This document shows positions 2,035-2,870 of a stretch of DNA of 64,000 nucleotides, one piece after another. The notes under the pieces are model-generated. The model had not been told where the DNA came from and searched no databases. It saw only the letters and a list, made by a program, of their open reading frames with translations. The stretch is taken from contig OZ024760.1 of assembly GCA_964016885.1 (NCBI GenBank), positions 26,288,001-26,352,000 on the forward strand, written 5' to 3'. The translations under genes were made by a program, and so were the position numbers. This stretch comes from Eledone cirrhosa. Its lineage: Eukaryota. Positions within the stretch are counted from its first letter, which is position 1. Each line of letters begins with the position of its first letter.

Positions 2035-2037
<3 letters not shown>

Positions 2038-2861
2038 GAATTTAGGAACAGTTTAGGTATGATACATTTTATTACTAATTATATCTAAATGTTTCTTCTC
2101 TCTTCATAATGTATTTTTAACTCTGATACTGGTTCAGTCTGGTTCAAACTGAATTAGTCTGTCCCAGTCATTCATTGAGCAACATCGGTGAAGTTGGCAC
2201 CCTTAACTCACAGTTGGGTGCGGATGCATTCATGTATATATGTGTGTGTCCGCATGTATCTGTGTGTTTCTAAATATATTAATAACTCCCTCTGGTCGAG
2301 CAATCTTTGAAGTGTGGGGACAACTGGAAATCTTCCATTACTCATACTTCTCGCCTTCTTCACTACCTCTTCTACGGCCTCGATATGAATACCCCCTCCG
2401 CCTCCGTGGTATTTTCTTCGTGGTTATAAGAGGCTTAGCTCTGTTTCTCGACCGTTATATCGCGTGACTGTCTCCCCCTCCGCCTTTTGGGATTCTTTCT
2501 CACGTCGTGTAGACGCGTTCTTGAGACTAGTAAAATGAGGTATCCTCTTGATAAGTCGGCAGACCTCGCAAGGACTCTATATCTTTGATATATTGTTTTT
2601 GTTTATGCCACGAAACTACGTAGTCAAGGAATTTAGGAACAGTTTAGGTATGATACATTTTATTACTAATTATATCTAAATGTTTCTTCTCTCTTCATAA
2701 TGTATTTTTAACTCTGATACTGGTTCAGTCTGGTTCAAACTGAATTAGTCTGTCCCAGTCATTCATTGAGCAACATCGGTGAAGTTGGCACCCTTAACTC
2801 ACAGTTGGGTGCGGATGCATTCATGTATATATGTGTGTGTCCGCATGTATCTGTGTGTTTC

Positions 2862-2870
<9 letters not shown>
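2035..2870 (+). mobile_element. Non-autonomous partial-tandem element (245-bp terminal direct repeats, 591-nt period) with a hammerhead at the repeat junction
   Basis: 2035-2279 is essentially identical to 2626-2870. It is flanked by (TA)n on both sides, has no ORF, and carries an HHR-like motif at 2543-2630. Confidence 0.8.
2543..2630 (+). ncRNA. Hammerhead-like motif with variant or degraded core
   Basis: uccuc-UUGAUAA-gu(c)ggca...ugccac-GAAAC-UACGUA-GUC-aagga. Stem III (ACUACGUAGU) is palindromic. The core differs from CUGAUGA at 2 positions. Confidence 0.6.

Follow-up and report, generated by a model that had tools for sequence, protein, structure and literature searches.

Non-LTR retrozymes, their circular RNAs and the hypothesis that Penelope-like elements (PLEs) mobilise them have already been published (PMC7229834, PMC7761336, 10.64898/2026.07.22.740005). 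In the accessible parts of these reports, PLE enzymes and circular templates are proposed from co-occurrence or pLTR similarity, and the mechanism is still to be shown. The 2026 preprint gives a unit range of 51–972 bp, describes pLTR homology in frogs, and found that eight of nine frog retrozyme dimers failed to cleave (10.64898/2026.07.22.740005). PLE insertions are described as partial tandems with an inverted, truncated 5′ arm, a tail of 30–40 bp at one end and a bias towards (TA)n (10.1101/2021.04.23.441226), and experiments with a purified PLE protein showed that it cuts and extends either strand, with two internal start sites that delimit the tail (PMC11167929). These and the following comparisons are drawn from the accessible parts of the cited sources.

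Here we describe a repeat family from Eledone cirrhosa, starting from one copy in the window, by which we mean the whole 64,000-nt stretch of DNA that was analysed. Like the metazoan non-LTR retrozymes (PMC7229834; 10.64898/2026.07.22.740005), the family consists of non-coding tandem units with a type I hammerhead each and a GC content below 50%, has a stable predicted fold, occurs in dispersed short arrays, and shows neither a PBS nor a PPT by eye in the unit. Its unit length of 591 nt lies within the 51–972 bp given in 10.64898/2026.07.22.740005 and above the 150–450 bp first described. It differs from them in its U3-A8 core and in a stem II of 57 nt. Two fixed ends of the PLE type, insertion strictly into (TA)n and inverted arms in pairs are further features, which the accessible retrozyme reports do not describe.

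With the EN+ PLEs Poseidon PAc (PMC11167929) and Neptune, Naiad and Hydra (10.1101/2021.04.23.441226) the family shares partial tandems, 5′ truncation, an inverted 5′ arm, a one-end tail, the (TA)n bias and a hammerhead upstream of two internal start sites, but it has no ORF and its tail measures 165 nt instead of 30–40 nt. Both of its starts show short AU microhomology; the start of PAc, by contrast, lacks homology to the cut DNA (PMC11167929). The U3-A8 hammerheads of the Schistosoma PLE Cercyon show the same core covariation, and the D. virilis Penelope hammerhead likewise has a bulged stem II and a palindromic stem III, but the hammerheads of these two elements are mostly single, heterogeneous or located in autonomous elements, whereas those of our family lie in young non-coding tandem units (PMC4209133). 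Chlamys MRC1 is also non-autonomous and inserted by PLEs as head-to-tail multi-copies; such elements have 3′ sequence in common with their partner, and most Chlamys have no hammerhead (10.1101/2021.04.23.441226), whereas our family has a hammerhead and no partner homology was found for it. In the accessible retrozyme reports we found no description of the tail, the paired inversions or the sharing of variants by all copies or one copy of an insertion; such descriptions may exist in supplements, for instance in Fig. S9 of PMC7229834 or in tables accompanying the 2026 preprint, and most subscription journals lay outside the scope of the search.

A young tandem repeat family with a predicted hammerhead

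The original prediction described the element as a 1.4-mer of a 591-nt unit embedded in (TA)n with its 5′ boundary at a predicted ribozyme cleavage site, and all three points hold for the window copy: the direct repeats are spaced 591 nt apart, (TA)n tracts flank the element on both sides, and its first base corresponds to the base after the predicted cut at GUC (Table 1). The repeats, said to look identical, match at 244 of 245 bases. Positions 2036–2279 equal 2627–2870 without change over 244 bp, and the lone difference is the first base, G at 2035 and A at 2626. Because these two cannot both derive from one base of a circle, a later CpG-type change, a copying error or a linear dimer template has to be assumed. 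The G-to-A at 2626 was also considered as a possible cause of the 1.4-mer; two other G-to-A cases occur on other haplotypes, and three other cut-starting arms have intact junctions.

Table 1. Features of the window copy (positions in the window)
Feature	Position	Strand	Basis
Left (TA)n target tract	1955–2034		
Full non-coding 591-nt unit, from predicted cleavage site to GUC, 41% GC	2035–2625	+	
Left repeat (unit 1–245); 5′ end is the base after the predicted cut	2035–2279	+	
Predicted hairpin, unit 1–70; can sequester GAGGA and compete with hammerhead stem I	2035–2104	+	prediction
Type I hammerhead-like motif, predicted cut after 2625; G-to-A at 2626 in the window copy	2543–2630	+	
Right repeat (unit 1–245), second unit pass	2626–2870	+	
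Putative reverse-transcription start 1, ATGTAT, unit 75–80; window copy not ended there	2700–2705	+	
'Tail' of 165 nt that separates the fixed ends; contains motifs that related families conserve	2706–2870	+	
Putative reverse-transcription start 2, AAATATAT, unit 238–245; 3′ end of the window copy	2863–2870	+	
Right (TA)n target tract; AT-rich repeats continue to about 3045	2871–2965		

The exact 23-mer at the unit start occurs 2,935 times in the 3.0-Gb assembly, against 0 for the reversed control, which supports the earlier view of a retrozyme-like multi-copy element and not a local duplication. In a DNA search, the best 40 of 640 candidates were at 99% identity and often in tandem at a spacing of 591; all 20 position-80-type ends examined that lack the exact unit start belong to the same family. 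The longest open frame has 86 codons in the window subfamily, 121 in A2 and 98 in family B. An endless ORF, suggested by 591 = 3 × 197, was rejected, as the unit contains no endless frame, and because no ORF for a reverse transcriptase (RT) plus GIY-YIG endonuclease is present in the unit, it does not qualify as an autonomous PLE. With a hammerhead in each unit, non-coding head-to-tail units at many loci and a stable fold, this young 591-nt tandem repeat family is a non-LTR retrozyme whose cleavage is predicted from sequence. Its type I topology and a repeat length that varies with 5′ truncation set it apart from plant-type LTR retrozymes, which carry a type III hammerhead in each of two fixed LTRs, together with a PBS, a PPT and a 4-bp TSD. 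Target-site duplications are unreadable within (TA)n. In two sequencing runs of unrecorded type the unit forms a single self-looping contig of 621 and 620 nt, as low-depth tandem DNA would also appear, and neither run is counted here as support for a circle. At two loci (L099, L111), whole insertions are tandemly duplicated with their flanks, about 2.6 kb apart.

Three related families share the layout and motifs in the tail region and are likewise non-coding, but older. Family B has about 75% identity, a unit of about 594 nt and the same core and ends (L135, L115), family C a unit of roughly 790 nt with U3-A8 and changed yet paired stems (L329–L347), and family D a unit of 681 nt with a C3-G8 core (L102, L103, L068); L205 is also among the older related families.

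The hammerhead-like motif is composed of the stem I 5′ strand UCCUC (2543–2547), the core UUGAUAA (2548–2554), an extended stem II of 57 nt with a bulged C2557 (2555–2611), GAAA (2612–2615), the palindromic stem III ACUACGUAGU (2615–2624) and the GUC triplet (2623–2625). The perfect pairing of GAGGA with UCCUC that had been claimed is found in the left repeat and is intact in 267 of 268 sampled unit starts of the family, but fails in the right repeat, where the window copy's own ribozyme reads GUC^AAGGA and A2626 leaves a C-A mismatch at the first stem I pair. Of the two explanations offered for the UUGAUAA core, decay and natural variation, the second stands: the core is present in 240 of 241 sampled copies with nearly invariant stems, one hammerhead to each tandem unit, and the exchange of C3-G8 for U3-A8 has been described as a covariation that occurs naturally in hammerheads (PMC4209133, in its accessible part). 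Related families retain the fold with changed stems and either core; the core stems do not covary when family A is compared with B, and covariation appears only with families C and D. Two separate variants were seen beside these: a deletion of about 20–30 nt in the stem II extension, in both consecutive units and with the core intact (L206/L208), and GUC^AAGGAUCAC at the junction of several family B copies (L116, L141, L142), a common mismatch adjoining the cut.

In a scan of 1500–3500, Rfam does not detect the window hammerhead at E ≤ 10, and its other output there was microsatellite-like miRNA noise and a weak Hammerhead_HH9 match (E 0.065) at 3232–3303 on the minus strand, inside a repeat (355–472 / 3210–3327, 89% identity). 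The 105-nt motif alone folds no better than shuffled sequences (z −1.0), and the whole 591-nt unit folds better than shuffles (z −6.3 linear; about −7 circular, with 30 shuffles). Of 109 inherited variants, a single one lies in the 41 positions of the ribozyme, where it preserves a wobble pair (binomial P 0.004); set against single-copy variants (8 of 167), the difference falls short of significance (Fisher P 0.09). We conclude that the ribozyme is under constraint, and self-cleavage is predicted. For the stem III palindrome, a dimer at −14.3 kcal/mol is predicted, but no hairpin within the monomer. When the circle is modelled, the hairpin of unit 1–70 takes GAGGA, the active ribozyme fold lies 8 kcal/mol above the best fold, and start site 80 is mostly paired; by this modelling the hairpin may possibly act as an off-switch of the ribozyme in the circle.

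Fixed 3′ ends and scattered 5′ ends

We sampled 127 loci from one stretch of contig C1. The unit start served to select 47 of them, the end at position 80 another 20 and the end at position 245 the other 60. Two loci were without an arm that passed the identity threshold, and of two segmental duplicates only the first copy was kept, which left 206 arms at 125 loci. Among the 205 arms that no locus edge truncates, the end lies near unit 80 in 99, near unit 245 in 102 and elsewhere in 4, and the 3′ flank is TA-rich in 204, a figure to be read with the choice of 80 loci on an end-plus-TA pattern and of 47 without it. Genome-wide, exact end-plus-(TA) junctions number 2,544 for the 80 end and 1,049 for the 245 end, a ratio that means little given the different tolerances of the two patterns.

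The two ends are also paired by rule. Of 78 head-to-head inverted insertions, 73 join an 80 end with a 245 end, five have a non-standard or edge-cut end, and none joins like with like. The family thus combines two alternative 3′ ends with an inverted 5′-truncated arm, a one-sided tail and a microsatellite bias, and its fixed 3′ ends with their 80/245 pairing are the PLE 'tail' signature. The original prediction missed these informative features, a 3′ end fixed at either unit 80 or unit 245 and inverted arms in pairs, which point towards the machinery of PLEs.

The 5′ ends of the sampled arms are scattered round the unit. Of 201 arms, 2 start at position 1 and 4 within positions 1–4, and a boundary at the cut is too rare to serve as the chief argument on how the family moves. 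The mean 5′ stop rate is 0.16% per base, with hot bins at 161–180 (19 observed, 7.3 expected) and 401–420 (15 vs 6.7). In the exact-start subfamily genome-wide, 15 starts without the upstream C resolve into 11 true ends, the window copy included, and 4 point variants, and 16 starts without the G into 11 true ends at position 2 and 5 variants. The resulting 22 ends at positions 1–2 correspond to about 2.3 times the mean rate (4.7 expected per site); the excess (P 0.009 for one site, 0.0003 for both) is no larger than that of other hot bins. In two insertions (L037/L213 and L221) both arms stop at these positions. A control at unit 481 gave 2 clear ends, 1 ambiguous end and otherwise point variants among the first 30 of 52 matches, and is rough, its position being on a CpG and its pool larger than that of the cut-site count. 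Single loci had raised the suspicion that copying stalls directly before the cut is reached on its upstream side, but the count there (8 observed, 6.8 expected) did not confirm it.

Copying thus probably does run off at the cut, but rarely; with 22 stops at positions 1–2 against 2,935 starts, over 99% of passes read through the junction. Synthesis of the window copy probably began at 245 and continued over a single junction before running off a cut 5′ end, and the end of this copy exactly at the cut points to a linear template, cut or re-nicked, and not a circle for this copy.

Template shape and competing accounts

At least one junction is crossed by 166 of 201 arms and two or more by 77; 93 of the 201 are longer than one unit, and the longest measures 3,987 nt (up to 6.7 units). 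All 253 captured junctions are without indel and 245 are exact, in a pattern that larger insertions would escape. Copies on the same arm differ by 0.26%, copies on the two arms of an inverted insertion by 0.36% and copies at separate loci by 1.91%. In 59 of 66 loci the arms agree at every diagnostic site, which indicates one template per insertion. Single-locus variants are present either in every covering copy (33) or in one copy (111), and at sites with at least three copies private variants occur in all copies (13) or one copy (40), with no intermediate case. An all-copy private variant is carried by 22 of 83 loci, and only two of the 84 full-unit haplotypes in 70 loci are shared. This pattern is expected from copying one monomer several times, whereas copying of a donor array should sometimes give partial patterns. 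Two exceptions were seen: in an array outside the sample (L044/L045), two neighbouring junctions out of at least four read GUU, and an arm of L153 switches haplotype. From the proposal that a self-cleaved, possibly circular RNA of about 591 nt was copied for more than one round like a retrozyme, the retrozyme-like and multi-round parts are retained (2,935 unit starts; 93 of 201 arms longer than one unit), and the cut-site 5′ end as its main argument is given up (2 of 201).

We consider it probable that the hammerhead repeat family is copied by PLE-primed rolling-circle reverse transcription with a double start, and the family is likely a non-LTR retrozyme mobilised by PLEs in this way. A copy with two ribozymes would be transcribed by read-through and would cut itself as a dimer via the palindromic stem III; the product would be ligated into an RNA circle, in which the 1–70 hairpin is predicted to switch the ribozyme off. 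A PLE enzyme would then target (TA)n, where the footprint of the insertions lies, and copy from unit 80 or 245, both AU-rich. Where both DNA strands prime, each would use a different site, and the two cDNAs would be joined head-to-head. Copying runs through the junction, for up to the 6.7 units observed, and ends at scattered stops. In under 1% of passes copying would stop at the cut, on templates that are linear or re-cut there, the window copy presumably among them.

A wider reading, to which we give slightly less than even credence, takes the clan of at least four families of 591–790 nt as ribozyme RNA circles that would be long-lived, have start-site motifs in common and no detected helper sequence, and parasitise a PLE enzyme. 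Each inverted insertion would then be the work of two reverse transcriptases at two fixed sites on one closed circle, one per nicked strand, over several turns. If this is true, the insertions would record directly in the genome the two steps proposed for the cycle of animal retrozymes, mobilisation by PLEs and reverse transcription round a circle, and PLE tandems themselves could come from circles. The family is young and numerous enough for its insertions to carry both the PLE two-start signature and the all-or-one pattern expected from a circle. It makes definite predictions (cleavage that follows GUC and depends on the dimer, and reverse transcription from 80 and from 245) and provides a small natural RNA for testing what PLE enzymes recognise and why PLEs carry hammerheads.

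The same PLE machinery and start sites could instead act on a linear, mostly uncut read-through multimer, with the ribozyme trimming occasional 5′ ends and no circle being formed. In vitro, unprocessed RNA was the dominant PLE substrate and the hammerhead was not needed (PMC11167929, in its accessible part), and the window copy, starting at the cut with an internal G-to-A, looks as a copy of a partly cut linear dimer would. The enrichment of ends at positions 1–2, the two insertions with both arms stopping there and the one two-of-four pattern fit as well. We nevertheless regard this as unlikely: linear copying only shortens arrays and should pass on unit-specific donor variants partially, but intermediate sites amount to 0 of 53 and 33 private variants are in every copy, and nearly every locus has its own haplotype, which runs counter to a few long master arrays.

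All-or-one sharing and the excess of cut-site ends would also be accounted for, without ligation, if a cut linear monomer were recopied by a reverse transcriptase that jumps from its 5′ end to its 3′ end and so mimics a circle. The passage of over 99% of copying through the junction and the 253 of 253 junctions without indel make this quite improbable, as template jumps in studies of R2 reportedly leave added or missing bases in most cases. Scarcely credible, in our judgement, is an origin at the DNA level, as a satellite or Helitron-like rolling-circle element with arrays homogenised by gene conversion and the hammerhead an inactive relic. Concerted evolution would lead one to expect tandem arrays with near-identical neighbours, and the motif is not scored by Rfam, but the 3′ ends are fixed and the 5′ ends scattered in the sense of the ribozyme, the ends pair as 80+245, an RT-encoding family has the same layout, partial conversion patterns are absent from the sample, and the fold is retained across diverged families. 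Rolling-circle copying of a closed RNA by a PLE enzyme thus remains our preferred reading.

A candidate helper and other hammerhead-like motifs

The RT-encoding family is abundant, young and PLE-like, with 42,827 candidates, of which 112 were scored at 96–98% identity, the query itself apart. From motifs read by eye, we tentatively take it to be a Neptune-like PLE. It has open frames of up to 1,257 codons and tandem copies 3.3–4.1 kb apart (L316–L327; L317 3688–7600, L324 63–7513), and its hammerhead is followed by two (TA)n ends about 55–60 nt apart; inverted copies combine an end of each kind (5 of 30 short loci, plus L316 and L327). The RT has Pfam RVT_1 matches below the curated cut-off, and a C-terminal fragment without a Pfam match was counted against the PLE label.

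In a BLAST comparison of the unit with six PLE loci, the matches listed were microsatellite-like only and no common sequence was seen. Partner searches gave 7 matches with a short-stem-II pattern, all clan members by their matched letters, and 48 with a changed-stem-II pattern, the first 30 of which were point variants or truncation points of the clan; with a profile of the tail, run over all loci fetched, the top matches listed were all additional non-coding relatives. The search for homology to the pLTR of an autonomous PLE covered two patterns, a single PLE family and fetched loci amounting to about 1.6 Mb, and detected none. Because no sequence in common with the unit was seen among the matches listed, we call the PLE-like family a candidate helper and not the established partner.

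The window also holds small hammerhead-like motifs of another kind (TATTTTAT CTGANGA ... GAAA, short palindromic stem III) at 24813 on the plus strand and at 30799, 14242, 10291, 7819 and 7510 on the minus strand, with a truncated piece at 1921–1955; these are probably the ends of another Penelope-like family. Two open frames, of 473 codons at 32516–33937 (+) and 150 codons at 23110–23562 (−), resemble, by their motifs, the C-terminal part of a restriction-like-endonuclease non-LTR retrotransposon; the 473-codon frame has no Pfam match. A hammerhead-like motif with an 8-bp stem II and a palindromic stem III lies at 8564 (−) and recurs in L232 and L147. Further hammerhead-like repeats occur in L115 at 754 (+) and in L050 (−), one with a long stem II and a palindromic stem III and one in 310-nt tandems; L050 (−) has three copies 310 nt apart.
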